Shown here piece after piece: positions 1 through 52,906 of a stretch of DNA of 64,000 nucleotides. Where the stretch lies: positions 12,424-76,423 of the IMG/VR virus record IMGVR_UViG_3300025652_000049; one strand, written 5' to 3'. Both the position numbers and the translations under genes were made by a program. The notes below the pieces were generated by a model. The model searched no databases and was not told the origin of the DNA. It saw only the letters and a list, made by a program, of their open reading frames with translations. The stretch's first letter is position 1; each line of letters opens with the position of its first letter. The DNA comes from a virus.

Positions 1-1780
1 ATGCTTTTTCTTTAGCTGCATAGTCGGCTGCTTGAATTGCAACAAGACCTTTTGTTTGTTGAGCCTGTAATCCAGCAACATTTCCAAGTACTACAGCAGC
101 GTTACCACCAGAAGCATTTGTGATAGCCATTAAGCCACCTTGCATCGCATCTGCTAATTCTGCTTTCATAGCTGCTTCAACCTCAACAGGAAGTCCATGG
201 TGTGCTCTCTTAGACATTTCAGCAGCATATACCTTTATTGCTTCTGAAACTTCTTCAGTACGTAAAGGTATCTTAGCATCTTTGGCTTGTTGGTTTCCAA
301 TAAGCCCCATTCCTAATCCCATGATAGCATCAATAGGAAGTTCCTGTTTTCTATCATTGTAATCAATACTGCCATCTTTAACCCCCAACAAACCTAATTG
401 CTGATTGAAGTAATCGGTACCAGTATTATCAAAATCTTCTTTTGCTTTTTCTGCTACTTTTTCTTCTTCAGTTTTTTCTTCTTCTGCTACTTTTTCCTCT
501 TCTTTAACTGGTGGTTTATAGATTTTTTCTCTTTCAATAGTAATTTCCTTCCTTTTGTTTTTAGGATATATTTTTTCTAAATTTTTAAATTGGATTTTTG
601 TTTCAGAACCGGGTCCGACATTATGACCAAAAATAGTATCCATAAAATCAATATCAGTATCTACATTAGATTTATCGTCATTAAGATTAAACGAAATTTC
701 TTTGCCTGACATTTTTTTATACTCACTGGCAAATAGAGTTTGCATTTCATCAATATTAAAAGTAGGAGACATTCCTTTTTTCCCTTTTGTTAATTCAGGG
801 TATCTCTCTAACATTTTATTATACTGCTCTATGTCTCCGGGCTGTAAGTTTGGAAAAACTGCCGTTTTACCTAAAGTGTATTTACCATCCTTTCCTTTGA
901 TTTTATTTACACGAAGTTTTTCAATAACACTTTGTAGTTCTTCAAACTCAGCAAATTCTTGAGAATTAAATTCATTTTCAGATTCAATAACTTCATTTAA
1001 AAAATCTTGATGACCTGCTTCAGTAGCATCTTTATATAATTGCTTTCTAAGAACTTCACCGGCGCCTTGCTCAATGTCACCATCTTTAATCATTTGAGTG
1101 ATCTGCGCATCTCTTTGTCTAAGGTCTTTTTTAGTCACCTCTTTCTTAACCAAAAAACCCTTTTCTTCTTTTGTTAATTCAACAGATTTTTTATTGTTAA
1201 CAGATTCTTCTATTTTTCCAGTAACATAGTCATTTGTTGTTATAGGCGTTCTACCTGCTTCCTTAAGACCTTCGTTGTATTTTCTAAGATATGTTCTTCC
1301 AGAAGCATTTGTTGAGGTTTCTTCTATTAGATTCCCTGAACTAATAGAACTTCTAGCAACGCTTGGAGGTTGAAAATGGAATTGACTAGCCATTTCACCC
1401 ATAGTTAATCCGGCGGGGTTTTTATCTATCATTGATTTAGCTTGAGGTAAAAGAACTTCATTTGCATAATAACCAAAATAAGCCTCTTGTAAAGCTGGAG
1501 AGTTTTTAAAATCTTCCATAGATTCTACTTTTCCAAAAACACCTTTTTTTGAAGCAGCAAATTCTTTAATACCCATCATAGATCCTGTCTTAGAAAACCA
1601 TTCTTTTAAGAATTGATATTTTCCAGTAGCACTAGAATCTGGCTTGCCATCTTTATTTTTATCACCAGCTAAAGTTGTATAAGGATTCGGATAACCACCG
1701 GTTTCTATTTTAGCAATTCCAACTCTTAAGTTTTCTATAATCGCTTTATCTCTTTCGGATATTGGTTTTTTATCAGGCAT
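1..1780 (-). CDS. Virion ejection/cargo protein with N-terminal lysozyme/lytic-transglycosylase-like domain (partial, runs off the left edge; absent from the ORF track)
   Basis: ATG at 1780 opens a frame that stays open to the edge: MPDKKPISERDKAIIENLRVGIAKIETGG...DSSATGKYQFL. The E-T-G-G and SATGKYQF motifs are typical of lysozyme-like superfamily domains. The C-terminal part is Ala/Gly-rich and helical. It lies downstream of the tail stabilization gene, where crAss-like phages encode ejected proteins. Confidence 0.7.
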   Translation of the reverse strand, partial: MPDKKPISERDKAIIENLRVGIAKIETGGYPNPYTTLAGDKNKDGKPDSSATGKYQFLKEWFSKTGSMMGIKEFAASKKGVFGKVESMEDFKNSPALQEAYFGYYANEVLLPQAKSMIDKNPAGLTMGEMASQFHFQPPSVARSSISSGNLIEETSTNASGRTYLRKYNEGLKEAGRTPITTNDYVTGKIEESVNNKKSVELTKEEKGFLVKKEVTKKDLRQRDAQITQMIKDGDIEQGAGEVLRKQLYKDATEAGHQDFLNEVIESENEFNSQEFAEFEELQSVIEKLRVNKIKGKDGKYTLGKTAVFPNLQPGDIEQYNKMLERYPELTKGKKGMSPTFNIDEMQTLFASEYKKMSGKEISFNLNDDKSNVDTDIDFMDTIFGHNVGPGSETKIQFKNLEKIYPKNKRKEITIEREKIYKPPVKEEEKVAEEEKTEEEKVAEKAKEDFDNTGTDYFNQQLGLLGVKDGSIDYNDRKQELPIDAIMGLGMGLIGNQQAKDAKIPLRTEEVSEAIKVYAAEMSKRAHHGLPVEVEAAMKAELADAMQGGLMAITNASGGNAAVVLGNVAGLQAQQTKGLVAIQAADYAAKEKA

Positions 1781-1798
1781 GATACTACATTTTTATTA

Positions 1799-2596
1799 TT
1801 AACTAAGACCTAGTTGTTTTTTTCTAAGTTGTTTTAAATTTTCCATTGAAGCAAGACCTTCGGACATTTTATATTCTTGCTCGCTTTCCTTTCTTTCTAA
1901 AAGGGTTTGTTTCTTAAATCTTTTAGCGTATTCTGCCTGACGTGTTTTAAGACGGTCAGCATGTATCATCTGACCAGCTAGACCAGGTGCAAGAAATGAG
2001 GCCGCAGTAGCTAACGCTTTATCACCACCAGACATATTACTTTCTTGAACATTCATAACGCTTGAAGATGGAGAAAACATCGCTTGAGATACAGCACCTC
2101 CTTCTTCTCCATGAGTGGCTGTTGCAATTCCAATACCTGCTTTTTCAATACCTCTAAAAACTCCTGCCATTGGAATTGCTTTACCAACGGCATCTTTAGT
2201 TGCATTCATTGCATTATTGTATTGCTCTTGTTTGCCCGATCCTTCATACTTGTTTTTTGCATCATAAGCATTGGGAGATGGAAGAGCGTTACCCATTTCT
2301 CCAGCAGCAGCACCATACTTTTTAAGACCTTCTCTAAAACCATTTTTAGCATCTGGAGGCATGTCAAATTCTTGTCCGGAAAGCTCGCTGTTGAAATCTT
2401 TTCCCATCAAACCTATACCTCCATTAGAAGTATTTGACGTCATGCTCTGTTTTGAATTTTTCTGCCAACCACCATACATACCATCGCTTGTAGAAGACAA
2501 AGATTGTGGTGCATTTTCTAATTCTAAACCAGTCGTGTTTGCTTTGTCGGTATCACCAAATCGACCTAAAAAACTACTTAATCCTGCTCCTAACAT
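1799..2596 (-). CDS. Putative ejection/cargo protein (Gly/Ala-rich, weak TM helices, basic coiled-coil C-terminus)
   Basis: 265 aa. Composition and position next to the stabilization gene. Confidence 0.5.
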   Translation of the reverse strand: MLGAGLSSFLGRFGDTDKANTTGLELENAPQSLSSTSDGMYGGWQKNSKQSMTSNTSNGGIGLMGKDFNSELSGQEFDMPPDAKNGFREGLKKYGAAAGEMGNALPSPNAYDAKNKYEGSGKQEQYNNAMNATKDAVGKAIPMAGVFRGIEKAGIGIATATHGEEGGAVSQAMFSPSSSVMNVQESNMSGGDKALATAASFLAPGLAGQMIHADRLKTRQAEYAKRFKKQTLLERKESEQEYKMSEGLASMENLKQLRKKQLGLS

Positions 2597-2606
2597 AATG
2601 TTTTAT

Positions 2607-5600
2607 TTAAAGGTGGCTTACTCTTAAACTATTTAATACTGCTAAGATATCAACTTTATTCTGATTTAAGCTCTCAGCTGTTATTTCAACATACACCCAT
2701 TTACCTCTAACACTACCTGATTGTTCTATATCATCGGTATCATTAATTGCCGGCACTGTATGTGTTCCTTCTCTGATTCTATAAGCATCATGAGTACCTA
2801 ATATCATTCTGTCATATCCTAGATTAGATTTAAAGAATACAGATTTAATAGGATAATCTAAATTGGTAACCATACCCCATTGTCTATAAAGAAATATTGT
2901 TTCGGTATTCGCGTGAATGTAAAAACCTAATGTAAGTTCTTTTTGTACTTCAAAGAAATTAAGGATATCACCAGCATTTAATTGATGTAATCTTGCGCTT
3001 TCTAAATCAACTCCCGAAGTACCTGTTGTGATTGGTGCATAAACTTTTTCTTTAAAGGTTATGTACATATCATTATCATACTCAAAGTCACCATTAAACT
3101 TCTGACTTACTTCATTATAAGATAACATAAAATTAGTTCCATCTTTAGTTCTTAGACGAATACCTGTTTCTTTATTTTCATGGTCGTAGTAAGCTTCAGT
3201 ATCTATGACTGGATTTTTCTTTAACTGCTCTAGGTATAATAGATGAAGTAAGTTTTTAACTAACAACGGATCTTTACCTCTTACAAACTCATTTTTAGTT
3301 TCATCAAAAAATGTAAACCCAAAATCTCCATTAGCAACAGCTCGACGTATAGCAGTACCATATTTACTTATAATCTTATGACCGTCTATAATAGTTCCAG
3401 AACCTTGCTGTACATTTATAGAGCCTCCATCTTGGTCTGAAATAACTCTATCCATACCAACATAAATAAGTGAAGTCTGCTTGCCTTGTATTGCGTATAC
3501 GTTATCATCATATCTAAATATGTTTGAAACATCACCCTTATTCTTTTCTAATAAAGCATAGAAGTTGTTTACTTTAAAAACTGTCCAAGCATCATAAGGA
3601 TCTCCAGCTAACTTAACATCGGAAACGGCAATAACGTTACCCCTGTTTGGGTCGTTCTTTAAATCAAATGGTTTCGGAATATATGTTTTTATATTATTCT
3701 CATTAAAGTATGCATTGTTGATTATTTCGTTTCTAGTAGTATTGAAACTGTGTTTTGAATTAACTCTATAAAATTCATATCCATAGGTTAACTTAGGCTC
3801 TACTTGTGATTCTAAAACAAAAAGATAAGTCCAAGCACCGTTACGTTGCCAAACCTCTATATCTCCTGATTGTCTACCATTACCATGATTATTATAACCT
3901 CTTTCTTCAACTGGATCAGTACCCCAATCATTTTTAGTTCTAATACTTAAAGTAACATAAACATCAGCACCTACATCAAAAAACTGTGCATTATTAGAAG
4001 ATTTTAAAACAGGTATTGTTTTACTAAGTGGTATGTATGTATTTGCAGTATAAGCCTGTTTTGTCCGACCACCAAATATAGATTCTCTGTTGTTTCTAAA
4101 AAGAGTTATTAATGGAAGGCTATCATAAACAACATGATTATCATCTCCTAGTCTTATTTGTGAATTTACAGTATGAATGTCTGGACCAACCACAACAGGA
4201 CTAAATACATCTGTAACAGTTTTTATAATAACAGTTGGATAACCAGGGGAAGTAATTGCACCTCCAAATATTTCAGATTTTACACGACCATCTATATAAT
4301 CCCATTTTCTTTGAAAATTACCATAGTACCAAGGCTGCGATTGCATCATAACAGCATTGTTAGAAACATCATTGGTTACTCCAAAAGCAAAGCCTGAGAT
4401 GCTAACACCTCTTTCTAGACTTTCAGCACTATCAATAACATGTTCAATAGGCCCATTAATTACTTGTACGTATTTTGAAAACACTGAAACATTAACAAAA
4501 TGAGTTTCCCATGTTTCATTGTAATCTTCTTCTCGTGCAAATCTTGGTAAATCTCCTTGATAGTTTTCTCCATCAACTTCTTGTTCAAGTATTTTTCTAG
4601 AAAACTTAGGATAAACCTCATCGCCAAAGTTAAAACCACTACCTCCAGAAACATCACCGCCTCTTTCTCTAATAACTCCGGGTGTGTGATCAGTGTTTAA
4701 AACAGCATAGATTTGAAGTTTGCACTTCTCTACATACTGGTCAGATATCTTACCGTAGATTATATCTGGTGAATCAAAATACATTAAAGACCTATTAACC
4801 ATAGTTCTTTTTAAATACTCTATATCATCTGTGTATTGATAATCTTCACCATAAGTATCATAATTTATAAGTCCTTGCTTTTCATATGTAGGGCCTCCAT
4901 TGTAAGGAATATTCCATTTGTTTTGAATAGCGGTAGGCATTTCGTTTTGTGGCTTACCATTTGTTTGAACTCTAGATAATGGGGCTGAGATACCACGACA
5001 CAAAATAGTTCTATTATCTTCAGTTCTTTCTACATAGACAATTTGATACATTGGTATTACTTCTTGCAACTCACAAGACAATCTAACCTCTATATGCATT
5101 TTAATTCCATGTCCATAAAGAGTATCACCTACTACGCTTTGATTAAGATACCTACTAGAAGATATGATTATGTTACCTGAGTCTGTAATTTCTTTTTTTA
5201 ATTCTCCCATATTCGGAATCATTAAATCTCCTAAAGGAATTACAAAGTATTTTGTAGAATCAGAATTATATATCTGAAGTCCTATTCTATAAAGTTCACC
5301 TTTCATACAAAACTTTACTCCTGTTGGCTCTATATAATCAACCAATGTTCCAGTACCGTCATAAATGCCAGTGGCTTTTTTCATTAAAGGCTCTGTAAAC
5401 TCTCTGTAAGTTACACGTAACCCATTTCCTTGGTCGAACCCAATACTTTTACCTCCATATACCAAAGAATCTAAATCAACCGTTACAGGTAGGAATTGAA
5501 TGTCATTATCAAATGTTTCTACATACTGATCGTTATTTGATTCAAACACATAACTACTCATGTCTGTTTGAATTAAATCATTAGTTGGTTTTAGTAGCAA

Positions 5601-7259
5601 TTGTCCATTAATTTTCTCAACCGTTAGGTTTGGGAAATATGATGCGAAAAGTATATTATTAGCTTGTTGGTCAATTAACCAATCAGCTACTAAAACAGTA
5701 ATGTTCGTATAATTAGCAAGTCCTAAGTCAGAAAATATAATTGTAACCTCATCCGAAGTTACACTGTTTTTGAAAGTTAAACCTAATGGCCCAAAGCAAG
5801 ATATGTTTCTATATACTTTTTGTTTGATATAAACTAAAGGCTCTGTATTTGTAGGGTCTATGTATCTATACTTCCAAGGCTCTGGATTAAGAATACAGTC
5901 ATGAGTAGCGCCAGTATCATCCCATCCATGAAGAGGGAATAAGTATTCAAGATTTGCAACAGACGTTGGTATTGGTTGGTCACGTAGCCCAGCCGCGATT
6001 AATTTGTTTTTCTTAGAAGTGAAATCATTACAATACTTCCAAGTGTTTTTATAATTTATAATATCATTAAAAGTAATGTTATCGGCAAACTCAGCTTCAT
6101 TACCAAAGTGATCAAATTCTACAACTGATTTTACCGGCTTACGTCCTAAATTACGAATCGCCGTAGGAGGTCCAAATGCCTCTAATTCTATAGCAACACA
6201 TTCTACTTCCGCAGAATCTTCAGGATCTATAAGATTTACTTTTATTCGAACTTTTTTATCAGTAGCTTCTGAAAAGTCACCCCCTCTAAATTCAACAGGA
6301 GTATTTTCAACAAGTATTCTTTGTACTTCTGAAGTAGGTGAGAATTCACTTAACTGTCCGTTTTCTGAAATAATACGATAACTATAAACAACAGTCATTG
6401 ATTTTATTTGTCCTCCTTCTTCTATGTTTAATACTTCTGGTTGAAGTAATACATTGTTTAATACCTGGTTAAATTCATCTGACGTTCTTGATGGCAAATT
6501 AACATCATGAAGATTTACAACTCTTCTTACATTAAAAGCATCAGTATAATAAACTGGCTTTCTGAATTTGTTTTCCTCAACTCCTTCAGTAGTTATTTTT
6601 GCTTCTACAGGCCAATTCTGAGCTCCTATCCACCTTAATTCTCCAACAAGGTTGTAATTGTCATTTAATCTCATGCTGTAAATAGCATCCCAATAAATTT
6701 CATTGTTTACTGGAACCTCAGCAATATTAATAGAACATGCAATTGGATTTTGAACATTAGCGTTTACTCCGTAATATTCTGAAAAATCAATTTGATCATC
6801 AGTACCTCCATCACAAACAAGATTATCTTCGAATTCTGTTTCAGATGGTGGATTTATTATTTTATTATAAGTACTTGTTGCTTCAATTGAATTAACAGAA
6901 AACTCATCTACTATATCTATTTCCGTAGCTCCAACAGAATCTACGGTTATAGTAAATAAGTCACTATTTATTGTTGAGATATCTTCTGTTATTACAACAG
7001 GCTCTTTTGACCCACCTTTTAAAACTTTTGCAAAAACAACTATTTCATCTTCGAAAACATGAACTCCTAGATATTTAACTATCTCTGTATTTTGATAAAT
7101 AAGTTTTGATCCAACACCTCCGGAGAAAGAGAAAACTCCATCTTTAGAATAGAGTCTACCGTTAGTTGCTTTTTGGTAAGTGTTTTTAGCCTCAGCCGCA
7201 TTAGTTAAATCTGAAGAGTAACCACCTTCTAATGTTTTGACTAGGTTAAAATTTACCAT
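2607..7259 (-). CDS. Tail stabilization / muzzle protein (crAss Tstab, P22 gp10-like)
   Basis: 1550 aa, beta-rich. Segments such as VYYTDAFNVRRVVN, YSYRIISENGQLS and MKGELYRIGLQ, plus crAss-like synteny. Confidence 0.75.
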   Translation of the reverse strand: MVNFNLVKTLEGGYSSDLTNAAEAKNTYQKATNGRLYSKDGVFSFSGGVGSKLIYQNTEIVKYLGVHVFEDEIVVFAKVLKGGSKEPVVITEDISTINSDLFTITVDSVGATEIDIVDEFSVNSIEATSTYNKIINPPSETEFEDNLVCDGGTDDQIDFSEYYGVNANVQNPIACSINIAEVPVNNEIYWDAIYSMRLNDNYNLVGELRWIGAQNWPVEAKITTEGVEENKFRKPVYYTDAFNVRRVVNLHDVNLPSRTSDEFNQVLNNVLLQPEVLNIEEGGQIKSMTVVYSYRIISENGQLSEFSPTSEVQRILVENTPVEFRGGDFSEATDKKVRIKVNLIDPEDSAEVECVAIELEAFGPPTAIRNLGRKPVKSVVEFDHFGNEAEFADNITFNDIINYKNTWKYCNDFTSKKNKLIAAGLRDQPIPTSVANLEYLFPLHGWDDTGATHDCILNPEPWKYRYIDPTNTEPLVYIKQKVYRNISCFGPLGLTFKNSVTSDEVTIIFSDLGLANYTNITVLVADWLIDQQANNILFASYFPNLTVEKINGQLLLKPTNDLIQTDMSSYVFESNNDQYVETFDNDIQFLPVTVDLDSLVYGGKSIGFDQGNGLRVTYREFTEPLMKKATGIYDGTGTLVDYIEPTGVKFCMKGELYRIGLQIYNSDSTKYFVIPLGDLMIPNMGELKKEITDSGNIIISSSRYLNQSVVGDTLYGHGIKMHIEVRLSCELQEVIPMYQIVYVERTEDNRTILCRGISAPLSRVQTNGKPQNEMPTAIQNKWNIPYNGGPTYEKQGLINYDTYGEDYQYTDDIEYLKRTMVNRSLMYFDSPDIIYGKISDQYVEKCKLQIYAVLNTDHTPGVIRERGGDVSGGSGFNFGDEVYPKFSRKILEQEVDGENYQGDLPRFAREEDYNETWETHFVNVSVFSKYVQVINGPIEHVIDSAESLERGVSISGFAFGVTNDVSNNAVMMQSQPWYYGNFQRKWDYIDGRVKSEIFGGAITSPGYPTVIIKTVTDVFSPVVVGPDIHTVNSQIRLGDDNHVVYDSLPLITLFRNNRESIFGGRTKQAYTANTYIPLSKTIPVLKSSNNAQFFDVGADVYVTLSIRTKNDWGTDPVEERGYNNHGNGRQSGDIEVWQRNGAWTYLFVLESQVEPKLTYGYEFYRVNSKHSFNTTRNEIINNAYFNENNIKTYIPKPFDLKNDPNRGNVIAVSDVKLAGDPYDAWTVFKVNNFYALLEKNKGDVSNIFRYDDNVYAIQGKQTSLIYVGMDRVISDQDGGSINVQQGSGTIIDGHKIISKYGTAIRRAVANGDFGFTFFDETKNEFVRGKDPLLVKNLLHLLYLEQLKKNPVIDTEAYYDHENKETGIRLRTKDGTNFMLSYNEVSQKFNGDFEYDNDMYITFKEKVYAPITTGTSGVDLESARLHQLNAGDILNFFEVQKELTLGFYIHANTETIFLYRQWGMVTNLDYPIKSVFFKSNLGYDRMILGTHDAYRIREGTHTVPAINDTDDIEQSGSVRGKWVYVEITAESLNQNKVDILAVLNSLRVSHL

Positions 7260-7282
7260 TTTAAAGTGTTTTATATTCTATT

Positions 7283-7290
7283 CAAAATTA
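7283..7290 (-). promoter_or_regulatory. Bacteroidota sigma-70 -7 box (TAATTTTG)
   Basis: TAnnTTTG about 25 nt upstream of the 1550-aa gene start. Confidence 0.5.
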
Positions 7291-7301
7291 CTAATTTATT
7301 T

Positions 7302-7745
7302 TTAGATAAGTATAATCATTAAAGCTGCTGTAATTAATCCTCCAATAAAACCGCTAAGACCCCACCATATCTTTTGTGACTTCTGTTTCTTAACTTGTCC
7401 TTCAAGGCTTCCTATTTCTAATTTATTATTGACATTATTAAGAGAATCTTTTTTAGCCAAACTTCTTATATTCCCTTCTAAGATGGGAATTGTAACAACT
7501 TCTAATTGGTGAATGATTAATTGATCAGAAGCTTCAATCATTTTTAAAGCATCAATACGCATTTCTAACGTAATGACCTCTTTCTTTTGCAAGTTATACG
7601 CTTCAAGTAATTTAGCGAATTCACCAAGCTTCTCATAAGTAATGTCTCTATTTTCGGAATAGAAAGTCGTTTGCGAGTGAATCCAAGTACTGTTGAGTAT
7701 AAAGCTTATAAAGAATAACATCGTAATCTTTTTGAAGGGCTTCAT
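7302..7745 (-). CDS. Secreted coiled-coil protein with C-terminal TM helix (spanin-like)
   Basis: Signal peptide with Gln at +1 (IHS-QTT), coiled coil, C-terminal WWGLSGFIGGLITAALMIILI. Overlaps the upstream TM gene in the lysis cluster. Confidence 0.45.
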   Translation of the reverse strand: MKPFKKITMLFFISFILNSTWIHSQTTFYSENRDITYEKLGEFAKLLEAYNLQKKEVITLEMRIDALKMIEASDQLIIHQLEVVTIPILEGNIRSLAKKDSLNNVNNKLEIGSLEGQVKKQKSQKIWWGLSGFIGGLITAALMIILI

Positions 7746-8025
7746 ATTTTCGTTTCCATTTTAAGTCTGCATTAATATAAACTATTTTACTTTCTCTAAT
7801 TTTCCGAATAGAATCATCGCTTTTAAGCCTGTCTCTTTCGCCTCTCGCGATCAAAGTATCTTCTATAACGATTAAGCTATCATTACTGCTTTTCCATTGC
7901 TCTACGATGTCTTTGTGCATTTTCCATCCTAAACCACCGCCACCTAAAGAAAGTAGAAAGAGGCACCCTAAAATCACTATCCCGATAATCAAATACTTTT
8001 TAGAATTATCCGCTCTCTCTTGCAT
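7648..8025 (-). CDS. Putative i-spanin (N-terminal TM plus periplasmic coiled coil)
   Basis: YLIIGIVILGCLFLLSLG anchor; located in the lysis cluster. Confidence 0.45.
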   Translation of the reverse strand: MQERADNSKKYLIIGIVILGCLFLLSLGGGGLGWKMHKDIVEQWKSSNDSLIVIEDTLIARGERDRLKSDDSIRKIRESKIVYINADLKWKRKYEALQKDYDVILYKLYTQQYLDSLANDFLFRK

Positions 8026-8238
8026 CTATTGTTTTGATTTAAAAACGTCCATTGACATTGCTGCAAATCCAGCCGTAATTATACCTAGTATTAAAACGTC
8101 TGTAACATCCCCTTTCTCTTCTATAAAGTATTTAGCAACTCCCATAGCAAGACCAATAAGAACAGCGATTGTTCCCATTACTCTCTTAGGAGATAGTTTC
8201 CCACTTGAGTCTGTAAAAAAAGTCTTTTTAGTTTCCAT
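8026..8238 (-). CDS. Putative holin (2 TM)
   Basis: 70 aa, GKLSPKRVMG followed by two hydrophobic helices, near the endolysin. Confidence 0.55.
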   Translation of the reverse strand: METKKTFFTDSSGKLSPKRVMGTIAVLIGLAMGVAKYFIEEKGDVTDVLILGIITAGFAAMSMDVFKSKQ

Positions 8239-8554
8239 TTCTATGATATATTAATTCGTGATTTTTAACCTTTCTATCTGTTCTAGAATTAATCCATCCT
8301 TGTCTAGTAACACCATCCTCTCTAACATCTGTTATTTCTCCACGAATATATTTGTCCTCTTTAATTACCTCTCCACGCAAAAGACTTATTTCTCTGTCCA
8401 TATCATTGCGTAATCCTCCTACTTCAGCATCAATCTTACTACTTATCCCAACTAAACCAACCCAGATACCTCCTAAACTAAAAGCTGCTACTATTAACAT
8501 AGCTATTGCCCCTATACTTATATTTATTTTATTGTTAAATTCTGGTGGTGGCAT
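8228..8554 (-). CDS. Membrane-anchored coiled-coil protein (lysis cluster)
   Basis: N-terminal TM helix followed by heptad repeats. Confidence 0.45.
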   Translation of the reverse strand: MPPPEFNNKINISIGAIAMLIVAAFSLGGIWVGLVGISSKIDAEVGGLRNDMDREISLLRGEVIKEDKYIRGEITDVREDGVTRQGWINSRTDRKVKNHELIYHRNGN

Positions 8555-8557
8555 ATC

Positions 8558-9007
8558 TTATGGATTGAATAAATAAACTTTTGAGTTTTTTTCCTCGTCG
8601 ATGTCGTCTAAATGTACCCAAGAAACACCGTCCTCTAATCTAATTTTGAATGGGAATAATTCTGAATTACTTACAATCCAATCCCTGACCTCCTTTGCCG
8701 TCATTTCTTTTACATCAAAATCGAACGCCCTTCCAAGTATATGCGCTGATATATATAACTGGTTTCTTTCCGCTTTATCTCTTACAAGTGGTTGGATATT
8801 TGTCCTAAGACCTCTCTGCTCTCTACTTCCGCTATTTACTGTAATAGGCTTATCTATATTAACTCTTACAATAAGCAATGCGTGTAGTGCATTCGTTCCA
8901 AAGAACCTCCACGCTTTATCACCGTACTTCTTAAAAGTTCTACTACCTACAAGTTCGTGTATTCCAAAATACTTTTTAATTTCAGTTAAAATTTCTGTTC
9001 TTGTCAT
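8558..9007 (-). CDS. Endolysin, peptidase M15 family Zn peptidase
   Basis: SAHILGRAFD (SxHxxGxAxD) and WVHLD zinc-ligand motifs. Confidence 0.85.
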   Translation of the reverse strand: MTRTEILTEIKKYFGIHELVGSRTFKKYGDKAWRFFGTNALHALLIVRVNIDKPITVNSGSREQRGLRTNIQPLVRDKAERNQLYISAHILGRAFDFDVKEMTAKEVRDWIVSNSELFPFKIRLEDGVSWVHLDDIDEEKNSKVYLFNP

Positions 9008-9456
9008 TGTTTTTTATTTAAAAATTCAGCTTCCCAACCATTCATTTTAGGTTTCCACATTACTATAAATTCTACCCTCTTACCACTTTTATTTACAATA
9101 GCGTGTTTTTCTCCTTTTTTAAAGTGGCAACTATTTGGAAACTCAATAAGACATTCTTTTTCTTCTGTTATAACCTCCCAAATAGCCCCTTTAGTTATCG
9201 GTATAAACTGTTCGCAACTATCTAAATGAAAGTGGGGAGGAAACACACTATCTATACCAAACTCATAAACACAAGCTGTTACGTTATCATTTCCTGTAAT
9301 ATCTAGTTCATACCAATAATCGTCTTTTGTACCCGGAAACTTGGTTCTTTTTTTCGGTATTACAGGAATGCTAACTTGGGGGATCTCCCGAAACCCTGCC
9401 ATCATATTGAGCCGAAACCCTGCCCTTTTTTTTGATAATTCCTTTTTGTGTTTCAT
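9004..9456 (-). CDS. Cupin-domain protein
   Basis: PPHFHLDSCEQF and GEKHAIVN cupin metal-binding motifs. Confidence 0.75.
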   Translation of the reverse strand: MKHKKELSKKRAGFRLNMMAGFREIPQVSIPVIPKKRTKFPGTKDDYWYELDITGNDNVTACVYEFGIDSVFPPHFHLDSCEQFIPITKGAIWEVITEEKECLIEFPNSCHFKKGEKHAIVNKSGKRVEFIVMWKPKMNGWEAEFLNKKQ

Positions 9457-31111: not shown

Positions 31112-31352
31112 TGTGAATTTTTGTTGCGTTAATACTTCTTTTTATAACACTATGAAAATGCTTTCCTTTACTTTCGGATTCATAGAAATTATCATAATCT
31201 TCTTGAGTTGATGGACTGTATCTATAAATACTTCCATTACCAAATCTAATATATATTGCTTTTCCTGAAGCAGTATGTCCAATCTCTTTAATTTGAGAAC
31301 TTGCAACTTCCTCTGTTTGCAAGTCCTCTTCTTTTGCGTAGCTACTTATCAT
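31104..31352 (-). CDS. KTSC-domain protein
   Basis: SSQIKEIGH...IRFGNGSIYRY...SKGKHFHSVIK consensus. Confidence 0.85.
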   Translation of the reverse strand: MISSYAKEEDLQTEEVASSQIKEIGHTASGKAIYIRFGNGSIYRYSPSTQEDYDNFYESESKGKHFHSVIKRSINATKIHNG

Positions 31353-33007
31353 CCGAACATTGGATTAGGACTCGTAGTTTTACTGTAAACCGATGGGTCA
31401 ATTATTACACACTCTGTTGTCAATAGCATTCCAGAAATAGAACCTGCGTTTTGCAAAGCTACTCGCGTAACCTTTACTGGATCTATAATTCCTTGTTTAA
31501 TCATACTCTCAACAAAGACACCAGCTCTAGCATCATAACCATGTTCCCAATTATTTTGACAATTGTCAAAATCTTCTAAATCTATTTCTTCAACTCCTAC
31601 ATTACTTATTATCTGATTAAATGGAGATTTAATAGCTTCCATCACAATATCAATACCAGCCTGTAAAGATGGATTATTGTTTCTTGTTTCAATTTCCATC
31701 TTGCTTAATGATAGCAAAGCCGTTCCACCACCGGGAATAATACCTTCCTGAACAGCGTTCTTAGTCGCGTGCAAAGCATCGTTAATCCTATGCTGCTTTT
31801 CTAGAAACTCTGTGTCTGAATAAGCACCAAGATTTATATAAGCTACACCATCAGTAAGCCTAGAGATACGCATATGTAATATGTTTTTCTCATAAGGAGT
31901 TGTTACAGTTTTTATTTTTTCTCGTAAAGAATCTGCTCTTTCTTCCATTTGCTTACGAACCTTCGCTCTGTATTCTTTTGTTCCAGCTACGCCTTTAATG
32001 GAAGTATATTGTAAACCAACACTAATGCCTTTTGCTTTTGGTAAAGAAGCCATTACATCCTCTTTAGCAAGACTATTAAACTGAACACCTTCTTCTTTAA
32101 GAAACGGAGCTTTGCCAAGGGCAGAACCTATATCTCTAAGAGTATGCATTTGCTCATCACCGAAGTCTGGAGCTACACACACGCATACTTTAAAGTTTGC
32201 CTTTGCGACATTAGTAACTAACATTGACAATACAACATCATCGATTTTAGGAACTACAATAAGTAAATTAGCCGTTTCTTCATTAACAGTTTCTAACAAA
32301 TGATTGAAGTTCTCACTTACATCTGTAAGAGGCTCATTACTAAGATACACATAGGTTTCGTCAAACTCACAAGTCTCGTTCTTCATGTCTGTCATAAAGT
32401 AAGGAGAAGCTAACCCCATTGGTAAGTTCATTCCTTGAATTGTAGTCAAATACGTTTCATATGTTCTAGATCGTTTGATGTTTACGATACCTTGCTTTCC
32501 AGCAGCTTCGTAAGCTTGAATAACTAAATCTGCAATTTCCTCATCGTTATTAGAAGATATCAAAGCAACTTGCTTTAACATTTTTGGAGAATCTTTAACC
32601 GAAATAGATTTTGACTCTAAGGCATCTACAATTAATGAAATACACTTATCAATACCTCTTTTAACTTCTAAGCGGTTGAGGTTTTTATCTAAGTTAACTC
32701 CAGCTTTGAAAATAGCTGCGGCCAAAACTGTTGCAGTCGTGGTACCATCTCCTGCTAGTTCATCAGATTTGTTGGCAACATCCTGAACCGATTCTATAGC
32801 AACCATCTCAATAGGTACGTCAGAGAAAACTTCTCTAGCAACTGTTACTCCATCCTTAACCGAGAAAGGACGAGCCTCACCTTTTACCCTAATCAGAACA
32901 TTAGATCCGCTTGGACCCAATGTAACCTTTACCGCTTTTTCAATTTGTTCAAGACCCGAAAGCAATCCTTTACGAGCCTCATCACCATATATAATATTTT
33001 TGTTCAT
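31349..33007 (-). CDS. groEL: Phage-encoded chaperonin GroEL
   Basis: VKVTLGPSG, KDGVTVA, AGDGTTTATVLA, GIIPGGG and GIIDPVKVTRVAL motifs. No GGM tail. Confidence 0.95.
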   Translation of the reverse strand: MNKNIIYGDEARKGLLSGLEQIEKAVKVTLGPSGSNVLIRVKGEARPFSVKDGVTVAREVFSDVPIEMVAIESVQDVANKSDELAGDGTTTATVLAAAIFKAGVNLDKNLNRLEVKRGIDKCISLIVDALESKSISVKDSPKMLKQVALISSNNDEEIADLVIQAYEAAGKQGIVNIKRSRTYETYLTTIQGMNLPMGLASPYFMTDMKNETCEFDETYVYLSNEPLTDVSENFNHLLETVNEETANLLIVVPKIDDVVLSMLVTNVAKANFKVCVCVAPDFGDEQMHTLRDIGSALGKAPFLKEEGVQFNSLAKEDVMASLPKAKGISVGLQYTSIKGVAGTKEYRAKVRKQMEERADSLREKIKTVTTPYEKNILHMRISRLTDGVAYINLGAYSDTEFLEKQHRINDALHATKNAVQEGIIPGGGTALLSLSKMEIETRNNNPSLQAGIDIVMEAIKSPFNQIISNVGVEEIDLEDFDNCQNNWEHGYDARAGVFVESMIKQGIIDPVKVTRVALQNAGSISGMLLTTECVIIDPSVYSKTTSPNPMFG

Positions 33008-33724
33008 TTATTTTCTAAGTTTTGCGAGTTTATATCCTAATTCAAAACGTGCTTCACAATAATGTGACCAAGCATTAGTAATACTAACATTTACTTTAAC
33101 TGCATCTTTAAAATAACCGTTTGTACCATTTTCATAACAAGCAGCAATTAAAGAATATATAGACTTTTTAATACTAGATATTCCTTCGCGTGCTTCTAAT
33201 GTAGCTTCTAAAGAACCAAGAAGACTAAACTCACGAACATCAGCAGCAATCTCTTTATCTTCTTTTACAACATCTGTAGTAGCAGGAATATCAAATGCTG
33301 TTTTAACCTCAACATTATAAGGATTCTGTGTTCCAATAGCACCAAGTAGTTGGCCCAACCAAGCTCTACCGTTATTCATAGAATCATTTAAAGAAGCACT
33401 AAAAATGTTTCGATTTCCTAAAATAATCTTTTGCATCCTGTCAGCATTCTTACGAATCTCTTTGATGTGCTCAATTAATTCTGAATTAGGATTAATAGTT
33501 TCATCACTAAGGTCTGGAGATTTTGTTTCACTCATTGCCTTAGCAATCTGAGCATTCTCTTTAGCACCATCGATAACCTGTTCTTCATCAAGAATAATAG
33601 GATCCACAACTGGAACATCAAATGCAACCACATCTTCTTTTTTAACCATAGCTTTCTTTTTAGCTACTGGCTTTTTAGCTACTGGCTTTTTTGCTTTGTC
33701 TTCATTACTTTTTTTAGCAGACAT
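33008..33724 (-). CDS. Tandem helical-hairpin protein, Acb2/Tad1-like (tentative), with a KKPVA-repeat N-terminus
   Basis: GRAWLGQLLGAIGTQNPY and a second HYCEARFELGYKL hairpin. Confidence 0.45.
   Translation of the reverse strand: MSAKKSNEDKAKKPVAKKPVAKKKAMVKKEDVVAFDVPVVDPIILDEEQVIDGAKENAQIAKAMSETKSPDLSDETINPNSELIEHIKEIRKNADRMQKIILGNRNIFSASLNDSMNNGRAWLGQLLGAIGTQNPYNVEVKTAFDIPATTDVVKEDKEIAADVREFSLLGSLEATLEAREGISSIKKSIYSLIAACYENGTNGYFKDAVKVNVSITNAWSHYCEARFELGYKLAKLRK
33656..33690. repeat. 15-bp tandem repeat (TTTTTAGCTACTGGC) encoding KKPVA
   Basis: Seen directly, about 2.3 copies. Confidence 0.8.
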
Positions 33725-35298: not shown

Positions 35299-35315
35299 AA
35301 AAACTCATAAAAGAG
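35299..35315 (+). promoter_or_regulatory. Repeated early motif AAACTCATAAAAGAG (copy 1; candidate phage RNAP promoter)
   Basis: The core recurs at 35775, 38119, 41549 and 43852 on the same strand. Confidence 0.5.
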
Positions 35316-35521: not shown

Positions 35522-35776
35522 ATGGCTATCAAGAAATCTACTACCATTGCATCAGCTGTCGCTGCTGCTGGAACTACTGCATCCATCTGGCATGCCTCTA
35601 CTGCCACTACTATGGCTGTCACATCTACTGCTGGCGCTACCGCCGGCTCAGGCACAATGGTCTTTAAGACTGTTGCCGCAGGCTTGGGCTCCAAGCTTCT
35701 CATCGGTGCTTTATGCATCGGTGCTACTGCTGCCGTCACCTACATGGTTTACACTCACCTAGAGAGTAAATCATAA
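35522..35776 (+). CDS. Ala/Thr-rich early membrane protein
   Basis: 84 aa with a C-terminal TM helix. Confidence 0.6.
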   Translation: MAIKKSTTIASAVAAAGTTASIWHASTATTMAVTSTAGATAGSGTMVFKTVAAGLGSKLLIGALCIGATAAVTYMVYTHLESKS

Positions 35777-35802
35777 ACTCATAAAAGAGAACTTTTGTTC
35801 AT

Positions 35803-35840
35803 CCTCTTGCTCATCCTCTTGGATAGGCAAGGGGCTTTTT
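35803..35840 (+). terminator. Terminator-like hairpin immediately upstream of the hammerhead
   Basis: CCTCTTGC...GCAAGGGG stem followed by CTTTTT. Confidence 0.55.
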
Positions 35841-35846
35841 CTAATT

Positions 35847-35895
35847 CTGTCGTGTAGTATGTGCTACACCTGATGAGGTTGTTAGACCGAAACAG
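35847..35895 (+). ncRNA. Type III hammerhead ribozyme
   Basis: CUGUC^ - stem I GUGUAG(U)/(G)CUACAC - CUGAUGA - stem II GGUU/GACC with loop GUUA - GAAA - CAG closing stem III. All conserved core nucleotides are present. Predicted cleavage after C35851. Confidence 0.88.
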
Positions 35896-35914
35896 TTACT
35901 TAATACTTATTCTA

Positions 35915-37054: not shown

Positions 37055-37061
37055 GTATCAA

Positions 37062-37108
37062 TGCATGTATGGTATGATTACCTAGAGGTTCGATTCCTCT
37101 TCATGCAG
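37062..37108 (+). ncRNA. tRNA-like mini element (acceptor-like stem, perfect T-arm, one small hairpin)
   Basis: TGCATG/CATGCA stem, GGTA-TGAT-TACC hairpin and AGAGG-TTCGATT-CCTCT T-arm. Too short to be a complete tRNA. Confidence 0.55.
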
Positions 37109-37153
37109 CTAACTTTAAATCTAAAAGGTTGTGACTTACCACACACATTTATT

Positions 37154-37525
37154 ATGAGAAAATTATCTTTATTACGTGAATCTCTTATGCAGTCTAAGAC
37201 TGCTGCTACTTCTATGGAAACCTTCAACAACTTAAGGTTTACTAGTCTATCCTCTGCTTATGAACATAAGATTGTTGCTGACAAAATCAACTCAAACAAT
37301 TACAAAACTATGCTTACTGCTAGTGGTATTGTTTGGGGTGCTGCTATTGGAACTTATGTTGCAGGCTCAACACTACTTGTTGCAGGCGCAGTATTAGCAG
37401 GAACTACTGTTGTTGGCACTGCTACTGCTCTTGCTGTTAACAACAGGCGTATTATTAAAAACTCTAATGAGTTTTTGAATAACGGAGATTACATTACTCC
37501 TGAGCCTATAACTATTAATCTTTAA
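37154..37525 (+). CDS. Early membrane protein (start revised to 37154)
   Basis: ACATTTATT-ATG context shared with other genes; Gly/Ala-rich TM hairpin. Confidence 0.6.
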   Translation: MRKLSLLRESLMQSKTAATSMETFNNLRFTSLSSAYEHKIVADKINSNNYKTMLTASGIVWGAAIGTYVAGSTLLVAGAVLAGTTVVGTATALAVNNRRIIKNSNEFLNNGDYITPEPITINL

Positions 37526-37535
37526 TCTATAAACT

Positions 37536-37691
37536 ATGTACAATCCTCGTCTTATTATCTCAGCTATGAGAACTTATGGTTGCTCTGCTATTGAAGCTAT
37601 TCAATGGCTTGGGCAACCTCATGAAAATGCATTCTTATTTACTAACGGCAATGTTCATATTCCAGAGTGCTGGAATACTGATGCCATTTAA
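37536..37691 (+). CDS. Small early protein (51 aa)
   Basis: MYNPRLIISAMRTYGCSAIEAIQWLG... fills the intergenic gap. Confidence 0.55.
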   Translation: MYNPRLIISAMRTYGCSAIEAIQWLGQPHENAFLFTNGNVHIPECWNTDAI

Positions 37692-37703
37692 AACCTATCT
37701 ATT

Positions 37704-37946
37704 ATGGATTCTTATTTCCTTGCACAGTTATTACGTCTAAAGATACACCTAATCACTATCAATGATTGTGATGATGTTGTTGCCTACTATACTGAAAAGT
37801 TTGTCAATACTGATAAACACGTCTTCATTTATACTCATGGGTACTTCAGTACCAATTCTAATAGTTGGGTTAATAAAACCCATATCGTCACCTCCAGTGA
37901 GGATCTTGAGTATCACCTAAAGAACTTTGGTAAATCTTTTTACTAA
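37704..37946 (+). CDS. Early hypothetical protein
   Basis: 80-aa ORF. Confidence 0.55.
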   Translation: MDSYFLAQLLRLKIHLITINDCDDVVAYYTEKFVNTDKHVFIYTHGYFSTNSNSWVNKTHIVTSSEDLEYHLKNFGKSFY

Positions 37947-37960
37947 AAACTATATAAACT

Positions 37961-38128
37961 ATGAATTATAATATTCCTGTTATTGAATTAGACCTATCCA
38001 TTCGGCTTCTCAATGTGTTAAAGCGTAATGGTATATTCTTTTTGTCTGACATTAAAAACATCGATAATGTTAAATGGCTTGACAAACGTACCAAAGATGA
38101 GCTATTGTTAGCTCTCAAAAACTCATAA
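37961..38128 (+). CDS. Stand-alone RNA polymerase alpha-CTD-like miniprotein (55 aa)
   Basis: IPVIELDLSIRLLNVLKRNGIFFLSDI...WLDKRTKDELLLAL resembles the RpoA CTD pattern LELTVRSANCLK..I..IGDL...LGKKSLTEI. Not in the ORF track. Confidence 0.7.
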   Translation: MNYNIPVIELDLSIRLLNVLKRNGIFFLSDIKNIDNVKWLDKRTKDELLLALKNS

Positions 38129-38241
38129 AAGAGTACCACGTATTAAAGAGTTTCTTGCGTGTCTAAATAACGAAGCCTCTTAACCCTAGCCCTCTTTTGG
38201 GGGCTAACATTGCGCGATGTCAAGCGCATTATAAGTGTGAC

Positions 38242-39422: not shown

Positions 39423-39827
39423 CTAAAATTCTTTGTGTGTCCATCTACCTAATGGTACATGATATTTACATTCTTTTTTAAGATTATCCATATCAGGCTT
39501 TCCAATGTAATGCATTGCCCAAGGTAGTACTACAAAGTATCTAACCGCATCAATGGTATATTCATTCATAAAGCCAATACCTATTAACTTGTTTTTGTCT
39601 CGGTGAAATGACTGCTTGTGTTTATAATTATAACTCAAGTAGTCGCCGGGCAAGAACATCTTTTCTACCGTATGACCTTGCTTTGGTCTACGGTTCCAGA
39701 CATCCCTCAACAGCTTGTTAGAAGTGGCTGATAGTTGATACATATTATCAATCAATTCATCACTGATAACTCGTGCGTACTTACTACTGTATTCTTTGAG
39801 AAGGGTTCGGACTATTTGTTGTTTCAT
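39423..39827 (-). CDS. Counter-oriented winged-helix DNA-binding protein (RepL-like, tentative)
   Basis: QSFHRDKNKLIGIGFM...RYFVVLPW resembles a wHTH recognition helix plus wing. It has its own TATATTTG box at 39855-39862. Confidence 0.5.
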   Translation of the reverse strand: MKQQIVRTLLKEYSSKYARVISDELIDNMYQLSATSNKLLRDVWNRRPKQGHTVEKMFLPGDYLSYNYKHKQSFHRDKNKLIGIGFMNEYTIDAVRYFVVLPWAMHYIGKPDMDNLKKECKYHVPLGRWTHKEF

Positions 39828-43546: not shown

Positions 43547-44186
43547 AACGATAGTGATATACGAGTTTCATGAGCTTGACATACCTGTTCAACAAAGTCT
43601 TGTTGATAAAGTTGAGGTATCCACTGAGTTTATATATCAAGACGCAGAAGAAACTGTCAAATCTTTTTGTAAAGCATTTGACGTTAAAACACACATAAAC
43701 AATTGGCTTCAATTTGCTTGTTGGAATCCTTATCTAGATCACGAATATGAACAAGAAGTTTGTGAGCTTACAGGTATGCGATTAAGAACATATCTAATTA
43801 ATAACTATGGACATGTTTTGTACAAAGGTAAATACTATGGTAACCTTTCTAAAACTCATAAAAATGGAACTCCTATACTTGTATGTAAAGCACATCCGGC
43901 TGGAATGAGACATATCAAAAGATATTCAAAAGTTATTTTTGAAAGAGATTGTAGTTTAACTGGAGTTTGTTATGACATTTCTATAATGAAACCAATTTAT
44001 AATTTCATTGACAACCCTAATGAAGTTGATACTATCGATGTATTATTTGACAATTGCTTCACTTCACTTGAAATAGACATTAAAGGTCAAGAAGATTATT
44101 ATCATACAGATGATGCTAAAGCGGAGCAAGTAGAGATTAACGATAACGAATATTTAAAAGATGGAACAATATGGATAAACGAATAG
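43536..44186 (+). CDS. Conserved phage hypothetical protein
   Basis: YEFHEL...CSLTGVCYD...NDNEYLKDG pattern. Confidence 0.65.
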   Translation: MRTETIVIYEFHELDIPVQQSLVDKVEVSTEFIYQDAEETVKSFCKAFDVKTHINNWLQFACWNPYLDHEYEQEVCELTGMRLRTYLINNYGHVLYKGKYYGNLSKTHKNGTPILVCKAHPAGMRHIKRYSKVIFERDCSLTGVCYDISIMKPIYNFIDNPNEVDTIDVLFDNCFTSLEIDIKGQEDYYHTDDAKAEQVEINDNEYLKDGTIWINE

Positions 44187-51039: not shown

Positions 51040-51603
51040 ATGGCAAAAGGAAACAAAGGAACTCAGAACTTCCAAGATGAAGTTGAGTCACATTTAGAAG
51101 AACGAGCTTTTAAAGAACCATTGTTCGCAAAAGCTTATGCTAACAAAGATAAGAGCATTGACAAATGCATTGCTTATATGCTAAATGAAATCAAAGCAAG
51201 CGGTAAGCAAGGTTGGACAGATAACGAAGTATTTAGCTTGGCTATACATTATTATAGCGAGCCCAATCTTAAGTCTGGCTCTAAACCAACAGGAACAATT
51301 ATAATCAATCATCACGTAGAGCTTACTGATGCTGAAATAGCTAAGGCTAAGTCTGATGCTAAGATTCACATTACTAAGACTGAGGAAAGCAGTCTTAAAA
51401 AAATAGCTATGGATAAAAAAGCTGAGGAGATAAAAAATAATTTAACTCCAGATGATATTGCTCTAGCTAAAAAGAAAGCTCTTAAAGAAGTTGTTGAAGA
51501 AACTAAAACAGCTATGACAACTAAGACCAGTAAGAAACCTATCCAATCGCTTGCTGAAAATGCAGCTATGGATTTATTCGCAACAGATGAAAGCAAGGAC
51601 TAA
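51040..51603 (+). CDS. PcfK-like protein (family includes the anti-CRISPR AcrIIA9)
   Basis: HLEERAFKEPLFA...KSIDKCIAYMLNE...GWTDNEVFSLAIHYY. Confidence 0.8.
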   Translation: MAKGNKGTQNFQDEVESHLEERAFKEPLFAKAYANKDKSIDKCIAYMLNEIKASGKQGWTDNEVFSLAIHYYSEPNLKSGSKPTGTIIINHHVELTDAEIAKAKSDAKIHITKTEESSLKKIAMDKKAEEIKNNLTPDDIALAKKKALKEVVEETKTAMTTKTSKKPIQSLAENAAMDLFATDESKD

Positions 51604-52906
51604 GAATCAAAAAGTAGTAGTTGCTTTAGATAGCAAGGTTAAGAAGATTGGAAAGCGTGTTCATAATTGGGCAGAGAAAAACGTAATGTACAATCTTGGT
51701 CACAGATACAAATCTGGTACCGTTAATTGTTTGAAGTGTGGAAACCATTGGAAGTCTAATTTCTCTCAGGCTTGGCAAGAAGAAGTAACTGGTGATAAAT
51801 GTCCAAAGTGTAAAAGTGAGCTTAAAATTACTTCTACAATGAAAAGGACTAATGATCAGTCAGCTTATTATACTGTTATTGAAAAGGCCGGTGACTATCA
51901 ATTGATAAGAACCTTTCAGATTAACAGCAAGCTTAAATGTAAAGAGGCTGCTAAGTATTATCATATTGAATGCTTTCGTGTGTATATCCGAAAAGATGGC
52001 AAGCGAGAAGTTATCGCTAGGCTTAGGTCTGGTAATGGATATTACTGGGGATATTGGCAAGGTTGGATGGAACTTAGACAGCCAAAAGTTATTGAAAATA
52101 AATACTCAGACGAAGGATTGCTATATCCTAAATGGGATATACATAAGCATGTTACGCAAGCTGGCTTCGATGCGTATACCTACGAAGAGAATAAATATAC
52201 CGCTTGTAAACTAATGTGGATACTTCTTACTTGTATTCACATGGAAACAATTGATAAGACTCCGGGCTATAATAAACTGTACAAATACTGTTTCCATTAC
52301 CCTGAACAAATTCAAAAGTATTGGGCTACAATAAAGATATGTATTCGTAATAAGTACATGATACCTGAGCCTAGAACTTATATGGATATGATTGAAGCGT
52401 TGAGTTATCTTAAAAAAGATTTACGCAATCGCCACTTTGTATGCCCTGATGATTTGCAAGAGCAACATAACTTCTGGATAGCTACAGCTACTCGTGTTCG
52501 TCGAAAACATGAAGAGAAATTATCTAAAGCTAAAAAACTTGCTTTGATTGAAAAACAAGCAAAGGAGATTGATAATTTTGAAAAGAGAATGGTTAAATTC
52601 GCTGACCTGAAATTTGAGATTAAGAACCTTAAGATACTTCCACTACTCTACATAGATCAAGTGAAAAGTGCTGGTAAAGAATTACACCATTGTATTTACC
52701 AAACGACAAGCTACTGGCAGGACGAAAATAATCTATTGCTTGGGGCATACCTCAACGATAAGTTAATTGAAACGACTCAGTACTCTTTGTCAGAAAAAGA
52801 AGTGCTACACTCTTATGGCTTATTGAATAAACATTCTGTCCGTCATAATACGATTGTAAAAACTATTAACAAACAAAAAGACAAGATTTATGCTTGTTTA
52901 AAATAA
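51587..52906 (+). CDS. PcfJ-like protein (start revised to MKARTK)
   Basis: CLKCG...CPKC zinc ribbon, YMDMI...CPDDLQEQHN and GKELHHCI motifs; paired with PcfK. Confidence 0.8.
   Translation: MKARTKNQKVVVALDSKVKKIGKRVHNWAEKNVMYNLGHRYKSGTVNCLKCGNHWKSNFSQAWQEEVTGDKCPKCKSELKITSTMKRTNDQSAYYTVIEKAGDYQLIRTFQINSKLKCKEAAKYYHIECFRVYIRKDGKREVIARLRSGNGYYWGYWQGWMELRQPKVIENKYSDEGLLYPKWDIHKHVTQAGFDAYTYEENKYTACKLMWILLTCIHMETIDKTPGYNKLYKYCFHYPEQIQKYWATIKICIRNKYMIPEPRTYMDMIEALSYLKKDLRNRHFVCPDDLQEQHNFWIATATRVRRKHEEKLSKAKKLALIEKQAKEIDNFEKRMVKFADLKFEIKNLKILPLLYIDQVKSAGKELHHCIYQTTSYWQDENNLLLGAYLNDKLIETTQYSLSEKEVLHSYGLLNKHSVRHNTIVKTINKQKDKIYACLK

Follow-up and report, generated by a model that had tools for sequence, protein, structure and literature searches.

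The window analysed here is a 64,000-nt stretch of phage DNA (positions 12,424 to 76,423 of the IMG/VR record IMGVR_UViG_3300025652_000049), and at its positions 37961–38128 an ATG-to-TAA frame of 55 codons lies on the plus strand. An earlier note on this DNA had claimed an unannotated 55-aa mimic of the RNA polymerase alpha subunit C-terminal domain (alpha-CTD) at this place, and our translation of the frame is identical to the sequence that it gave. The features at the locus are listed below.

37961..38128, plus strand: very probable gene of 55 codons, encoding an RNA polymerase alpha-CTD-like domain that is shortened and stands alone (evidence from translation, PF03118, NCBIfam, AlphaFold, Foldseek and VIA-align)
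37941..37960, plus strand: leader of the alpha-CTD gene, A/T-rich (85% A+T), unstructured and without a Shine-Dalgarno site
38119..38133, plus strand: 15-mer repeat AAACTCATAAAAGAG, the third of its exact copies, overlapping the end of the alpha-CTD gene (final codons and stop)

An in-frame TAA at 37955–37957 stands two codons upstream of the start, and the 55-aa protein contains no second Met. The ORF therefore cannot extend, and its product, if translated, has exactly 55 residues. The preceding co-directional ORF (37704–37946, 80 aa, stop at 37944–37946) ends 14 nt before the ATG in another frame, so that the leader begins within the final bases of this ORF and includes the TAA at 37955–37957. 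We considered that the 80-aa ORF and the alpha-CTD might be one broken gene, but this split fusion was rejected, since the frames differ and the sole homologue of the 80-aa protein (84% identity, on the 81-kb contig of a relative) is also 80 aa long.

None of the phage genes carries a Shine-Dalgarno site, and their leaders are A/T-rich. With a position matrix for start context, derived from the 42 ORFs that reach 150 codons, we obtained a score of 2.9 for the alpha-CTD ORF, compared with 3.39 ± 2.84 in these long ORFs, and just 3.6% of all ATGs reach this score. Around the start codon, the RNA is predicted to be open, with an MFE of −1.5 kcal/mol and an unpaired centroid. For codon usage, the alpha-CTD frame scores highest among the six frames; its score is low, at 0.096 per codon versus 0.45 in long genes, and 9% of spurious ORFs match it. 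This weak codon score speaks for a non-functional sequence, either an untranslated ORF or the decaying remnant of a captured alpha-CTD-like sequence, whereas the good start context speaks against it.

The repeated 15-mer AAACTCATAAAAGAG at the 3' end of the gene has exact same-strand copies at 35301–35315, 35775–35789 and 38119–38133, all less than 3 kb from where the plus-strand arm of the genome begins, and copies with two mismatches at 43852 and 55924, against 0.45 matches expected by chance at up to 2 mismatches. The sequence common to the copies is just a 15–17-mer. We consider AAACTCATAAAAGAG a candidate signal bounding the alpha-CTD gene, which probably acts in transcription (as a promoter) or at the RNA level. 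The 3' end of the gene overlaps this motif and a hairpin, and these may be the features under selection, which would again favour a non-functional ORF.

For the identity of the domain, the earlier note had relied on the RpoA CTD pattern, and this assignment is borne out by Pfam. The family PF03118 (RNA_pol_A_CTD) matched with 28.5 bits (E 1.3e-6, protein residues 3–34 on profile positions 11–42), above its gathering score of 23.8, and no other Pfam family was found on the 55-aa protein even at E <= 10. When all six frames of the 76.4-kb genome were searched with PF03118, a single place was returned, 37961–38128, with 26.1 bits. Six NCBIfam models also matched (E 3e-4 to 9e-3), all of them full-length RpoA models aligned via their C-terminal ends; the alignments cover just model positions of about 234–303, and the scores are far under the model cut-offs. 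BLASTP against E. coli RpoA (from NC_000913.3) aligned residues 6–49 of the phage protein to residues 256–290 (E 3e-5).

A phmmer search of 1.84 billion cluster representatives yielded 16 proteins at E < 1e-3. Ten of these 16 were scanned with Pfam, and all ten carry 2–4 PF03118 repeats, some of them together with sigma region 4 or PC4 domains. Such multi-repeat proteins rank high because the scores of their repeats add up. Taken singly, the repeats reach 12–23 bits, about equal to genuine RpoA CTDs in the PDB and no better than RpoA, and we therefore rejected the multi-repeat proteins as the closest kin of the phage protein. Two leucine-rich-repeat proteins topping a PDB sequence search were judged to be an artefact of repeat summing. 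We are highly confident that the 55-aa protein is an alpha-CTD domain by identity; it is a member of PF03118 and not an RpoA.

A residue map was obtained by aligning the 55-aa protein with E. coli RpoA 249–320 and 69 alpha-CTD repeats. The S-x-R-x2-N-x-L-K string named in the earlier note is present as S13-I14-R15-L16-L17-N18-V19-L20-K21, and the positions compare with E. coli RpoA as follows.

P6 and V7, at E. coli P256 and V257: kept
E9 and D11, at E. coli D259 and E261: acidic character kept
R15, at E. coli R265: kept, with Arg in 61 of the 69 repeats
N18, at E. coli N268: kept, with Asn in 57 of the 69 repeats
L20, G24, I25 and D30, at E. coli L270 and positions of the core: retained, as parts of the hydrophobic core or hallmark residues
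Deletion, at E. coli 282–286: five residues, with helices 2 and 3 merged in the model
K32 and N33, at E. coli V287 and E288: lost
W39, at E. coli N294: lost
D41, at E. coli G296: lost, the column being Gly in 61 of the 69 repeats and Asp in none of the 69
R43 and T44, at E. coli K298 and S299: conservative replacements
E47, at E. coli E302: kept

The set of hydrophobic core and hallmark residues (L10, L12, R15, N18, L20, G24, I25, D30 and E47) is intact. Together with the PF03118 match, the map agrees with the earlier reading of a free-standing alpha-CTD homologue whose helix bears the DNA-contacting Arg and Asn. In E. coli, the 265 determinant of the alpha-CTD binds the minor groove of UP elements, residues 259 and 261 touch sigma-70 region 4, and CAP is contacted through the 287 determinant. 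In the phage protein, the DNA-reading residues of helix 1 (R265 and N268) are present, and E9 and D11 stand at the positions of the acidic 261 determinant (D259 and E261 in E. coli). At the second hairpin of the 265 determinant, W39, D41, R43 and T44 stand in place of N294, G296, K298 and S299. The 287 determinant (285–289, 315, 317 and 318) is mostly deleted or lies past the end of the protein, which stops at about E. coli residue 309, short of G315, R317 and L318.

Compared with the RpoA CTD (E. coli about 249–329; PF03118; 1z3e_B, 1lb2_B, 3n97 and 1doq), the phage protein is homologous in sequence and has the same predicted fold. R265, N268, the acidic 259/261 pair, conservative residues at K298/S299, Glu302 and the hydrophobic core are common to both, whereas the phage protein is five residues shorter, ends at about 309, has G296 replaced by Asp and N294 by Trp, and is missing most of the 287 determinant. 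The alpha-NTD, that is, the dimerisation and assembly domain of RpoA, and the flexible linker are absent from the 55-codon ORF. Judged from the alignment and the E. coli roles, the DNA head of helix 1 and the sigma-facing acidic pair are kept, the second DNA loop is degenerate, and most of the activator patch is gone. Given the five-residue deletion and the degenerate second loop, DNA binding may be weak or lost. An untethered monomeric alpha-CTD is itself a weak DNA binder. Since most of the 287 patch is absent and the second DNA loop is altered, general titration of activators, one of the roles that the earlier note had suggested, is less likely than a role for the R265/N268 head and the acidic 259/261 patch.

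AlphaFold, guided by aligned sequences of the 16 homologues, returned a model with a pLDDT of 87.7, and the single-sequence run was weak (pLDDT 62.4). Since its input alignment consists of alpha-CTD repeats, the alignment-guided model depends on the homology. It comprises a short turn at 7–9 and helices at 14–22, 28–36 and 42–54, which corresponds to the compact helical (HhH)2-type fold (about 60–70 residues) with helices 2 and 3 merged. The best 50 Foldseek matches listed from the PDB are all RNAP alpha subunit or alpha-CTD chains, with TM scores of 0.65–0.84 and an rmsd of about 2 Å. A VIA-align scan of 48,161 chains, independent of Foldseek, placed the B. subtilis alpha-CTD 1z3e_B first (Z 9.1, rmsd 1.7 Å, 55 of 55 residues) and the E. 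coli alpha-CTD 251–310 second (Z 8.2), with other (HhH)2 domains at Z <= 7.5. The helix-hairpin-helix alpha-CTD fold on which the earlier note had staked its reading is thus predicted, and the best matches are solved alpha-CTDs (Foldseek TM 0.75–0.84 for these).

The structural matches also bear on another explanation, that the gene encodes a generic small HhH DNA-binding protein, unconnected with RNAP, whose work on phage DNA would be replication, recombination, packaging or nucleoid-like coating. RAD51-family N-terminal domains and a Y-family polymerase thumb do score Z 5–7.5 against the model, alpha-CTD-like repeats are found in many non-polymerase proteins, and the replication module follows downstream of the gene; however, the sequence profiles give alpha-CTD and no other HhH family at E <= 10, the NCBIfam matches are exclusively RpoA models, and the top structural matches are true alpha-CTDs. 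We regard a generic HhH protein as rather unlikely.

Phage proteins annotated as containing an alpha-CTD were found in BFVD/UniProt, for example A0A6J5M7I6, A0A5Q2WLP1 of the Mycobacterium phage Mithril and A0A2P1JY10 of the Rhodococcus phage Finch. Like the 55-aa protein, they are phage-borne and detached from RpoA, and they have the fold in common with it (TM 0.74–0.85). They differ in being 105–240 aa long with an extra module, whereas the 55-aa protein is a bare domain without sequence relatives and has no second (N-terminal) module joined to it. The best database matches of the 55-aa protein are metagenomic multi-repeat alpha-CTD proteins and fusions of alpha-CTD with sigma region 4, which carry 2–8 repeats or an added sigma-4 or PC4 domain; in contrast, no sigma-like domain (PF04545, PF08281, PF04542) was found in the six frames of the phage genome. 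Weak matches to alpha-CTD repeat proteins were also seen for several PHROG families. The nearest neighbours in the ESM Atlas are clusters of 60–68-aa stand-alone PF03118 proteins (score 0.88), which we take as a lead only.

Phage alpha-CTD proteins are already common in the databases as a class and are not new as such. What sets the 55-aa protein apart is that it is a bare domain with five residues deleted and a Gly changed to Asp, that it comes from a crAss-like phage with a probable Bacteroidota host, and that it has no relatives at all. Among the proteins compared, it is the barest form of alpha-CTD, a domain on its own that has lost the activator patch and retains the DNA head of helix 1 and the acidic pair facing sigma. 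Our literature search found no study of function for any phage-encoded alpha-CTD protein.

In the protein database search, the only copy found was the identical sequence, which occurs on 8 contigs. No small or variant relative appeared in phmmer over the 1.84 billion cluster representatives, the scan of IMG/VR with the 55-aa protein found nothing, and tblastn against 50,697 phage records gave no match. A scan of GTDB genomes returned just a local match, to a multidomain protein of Pseudobutyrivibrio. In this 898-aa protein of the Pseudobutyrivibrio sp. UBA1225 MAG (1774–4470, plus strand), an example of the alpha-CTD fusions, the N-terminal domain is alpha-CTD-like and has the 10-mer LKRNGIFFLS in common with the phage protein, and a sigma-4-like helix-turn-helix can be recognized by eye further on.

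As relatives of the phage, 80 IMG/VR loci were collected via TerL alignment, and 23 whole records were searched with PF03118. A match above the cut-off occurred in 0 of 14 near-complete family members and in 0 of 3 distant 97-kb crAss-like records. A 13.7-bit match to PF03118 in one related record was judged spurious, the frame being doubtful on reading its ORFs. The 55-aa protein as query gave no match in the 23 related records either, and PF03118 had no match in phi14:2. Local tblastn showed that the neighbouring small genes at 37536, 38252, 38559 and 39932 recur in relatives, in a partly changed order, and that neither the upstream 80-aa gene nor the alpha-CTD gene recurs there. Because it is absent from relatives and has no diverged homologue on record, we read the alpha-CTD gene as a lineage-specific accessory in a variable region.

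The same lack of a homologue in any relative, and of a variant in the databases, would also suit a non-functional ORF. Set against this, non-coding DNA would not be expected to hold an unbroken frame of 55 codons scoring above a curated Pfam threshold. The frame is the sole PF03118 match in six frames of a 76 kb genome, the core and hallmark residues are intact, and the model is confident. We consider a non-functional ORF very unlikely and 37961–38128 very probably a real gene.

The IMG/VR contig of 76,423 bp is estimated to be 94% complete. Its minus-strand arm encodes the major head protein, the portal, the large terminase and a GroEL-type chaperonin, together with a 1550-aa protein of the Crassvirus muzzle family (PF25731 crAss_MUZ, E 1.7e-52). 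The chaperonin gene (31349–33007, minus strand) matches PHROG 5725 with E 1e-117, and its product has 51–54% identity to counterparts in 28 related IMG/VR loci. Adjoining the muzzle gene and lying upstream of where the window begins, an ORF (2–9445 of the genome, minus strand) encodes at least 3148 aa and runs off the start of the contig. It has no Pfam, PHROG or phage tblastn match and no DFDxD motif, just DYDDD at residue 1339, so that its assignment as a virion RNA polymerase is unsupported; it could be a virion cargo or polymerase protein of the crAss-like lineage. The TerL protein is 23–26% identical to those of human-gut crAss phages and 47–83% identical to those of a large set of uncultured 71–85-kb phages, including a Tara ocean record. 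On the basis of its muzzle protein, its terminase and the giant protein beside the muzzle gene, we classify the phage as a distant crAss-like phage, whose host is probably a member of the Bacteroidota.

The plus-strand arm begins near 35300; small ORFs fill roughly its first 7 kb, and helicases and other replication genes follow. The alpha-CTD gene lies 2.7 kb into this arm, among small variable genes and 5' of the replication module. From this position at the head of the replication-side strand, which is the sole basis for the timing, the protein is probably made early. [quoted passage not shown] If this scheme holds in a distant relative, the host RNAP would be a sensible target for an early protein. 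The Bacteroidota-type promoter consensus TTTG ... TAnnTTTG showed no enrichment in the window, and a scan for sigma-70-type promoters likewise showed no enrichment. Elsewhere in the plus-strand arm, the 134-aa ORF at 39423–39827 is the sole sizeable one on the minus strand; it has no Pfam or NCBIfam match, and weak homologues of it occur in two related loci. The arm also includes a gene for a PcfJ-like domain protein (51551–52906, plus strand; PF14284, E 6e-18).

The predicted gene product is a detached minimal alpha-CTD-like helix-hairpin-helix domain without alpha-NTD, linker or partner module. Its conserved face consists of helix 1 with Arg15 and Asn18 (R265 and N268) and of Glu9 and Asp11 (D259 and E261, which are sigma region 4 contacts in E. 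coli). Through this face, the domain would dock in trans at the sites of the host alpha-CTD, either on A/T-rich DNA upstream of the −35 element or on the neighbouring sigma region 4. As a result, the host alpha-CTD might be competed out, leading to host shut-off, or the host polymerase might be aided on phage promoters. Because the helix-1 face and the acidic pair are kept, trans action at host alpha-CTD docking sites is the most likely mode. We put forward this mechanism, by competition or by help at phage promoters, tentatively and as possible rather than probable. A dedicated switch factor, in which an early free alpha-CTD beside sigma region 4 evicts the host alpha-CTD or recruits the polymerase to phage middle promoters, seems distinctly unlikely.

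The free domain could also be a protein-binding decoy that soaks up a factor docking on the polymerase alpha-CTD and thereby uncouples regulated host transcription. The proposed targets of such a decoy are an activator, an Spx-like anti-alpha factor or an NusA AR2-like module, of the host or of the phage. The degenerate second DNA loop, with D41 at G296 and W39 at N294, argues against strong DNA binding and hence for a decoy, as do the otherwise kept fold of the model and the presence of solved alpha-CTD complexes with Spx and NusA-AR2 among the structural matches. However, the best-known activator patch (285–289 and 315–318) is largely deleted or past the end of the protein, the best-kept residues, R265 and N268, are known for contacting DNA, and domain searches identified no partner in the phage. 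We hold the decoy to be unlikely. The trans-acting mechanism, the decoy, the generic HhH protein and the non-functional ORF are inseparable by sequence alone. The analysis demonstrates the homology of the 55-aa protein, its predicted fold, the residues kept or lost and the gene context, and from these we infer translation, timing, binding partners and effect. As the overall best explanation, we favour a genuine small gene, carried by a distant crAss-like phage, for a detached minimal alpha-CTD that would act in trans, and we give this explanation about an even chance of being right.

Phages are known to disable or redirect the host RNA polymerase via the alpha-CTD by modification or cleavage. 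Alt and ModA of T4, for example, ADP-ribosylate R265. Rac of phiKMV is reported to mediate cleavage of the alpha subunit (PMC7552054). If the 55-aa protein is active, it would show which surfaces suffice for a trans-acting alpha-CTD, and it would provide a small probe of promoter-upstream recognition in probably Bacteroidota hosts that lack Shine-Dalgarno sites, where promoter architecture is poorly understood. If the reading as a switch factor were true, a function would be demonstrated for the first time for a free alpha-CTD, and no smaller protein would be known that exploits the docking site of the alpha-CTD. The value of the finding is limited in that this is an orphan gene in an uncultured phage.

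Several RNA and repeat features were also observed around the locus. The segment 38085–38255 (plus strand), which covers the 3' end of the alpha-CTD gene and the following 123-nt spacer, is predicted to form a chain of hairpins with an MFE of −48.5 kcal/mol, compared with −32.4 ± 4.1 for shuffled sequences (z −3.9), and 0 of 200 shuffles are as stable. At 35844–35898 (plus strand), directly 3' of a terminator-like hairpin (35815–35834), Rfam gave a type III hammerhead match over the full model with 32.3 bits and E 6e-4, below the gathering score of 48.5. The sequence ATTTATTATG occurs six times, at 33722, 37147, 38245, 39925, 49264 and 51033, versus 0.74 expected, and five of the six copies include the ATG of a listed ORF. 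The sixth copy, at 37147–37156, suggests that the 154-codon ORF 37061–37525 really starts at 37154. Three of the ATTTATTATG copies have a longer leader in common, TTAATACA(A)TTTATT-ATG.
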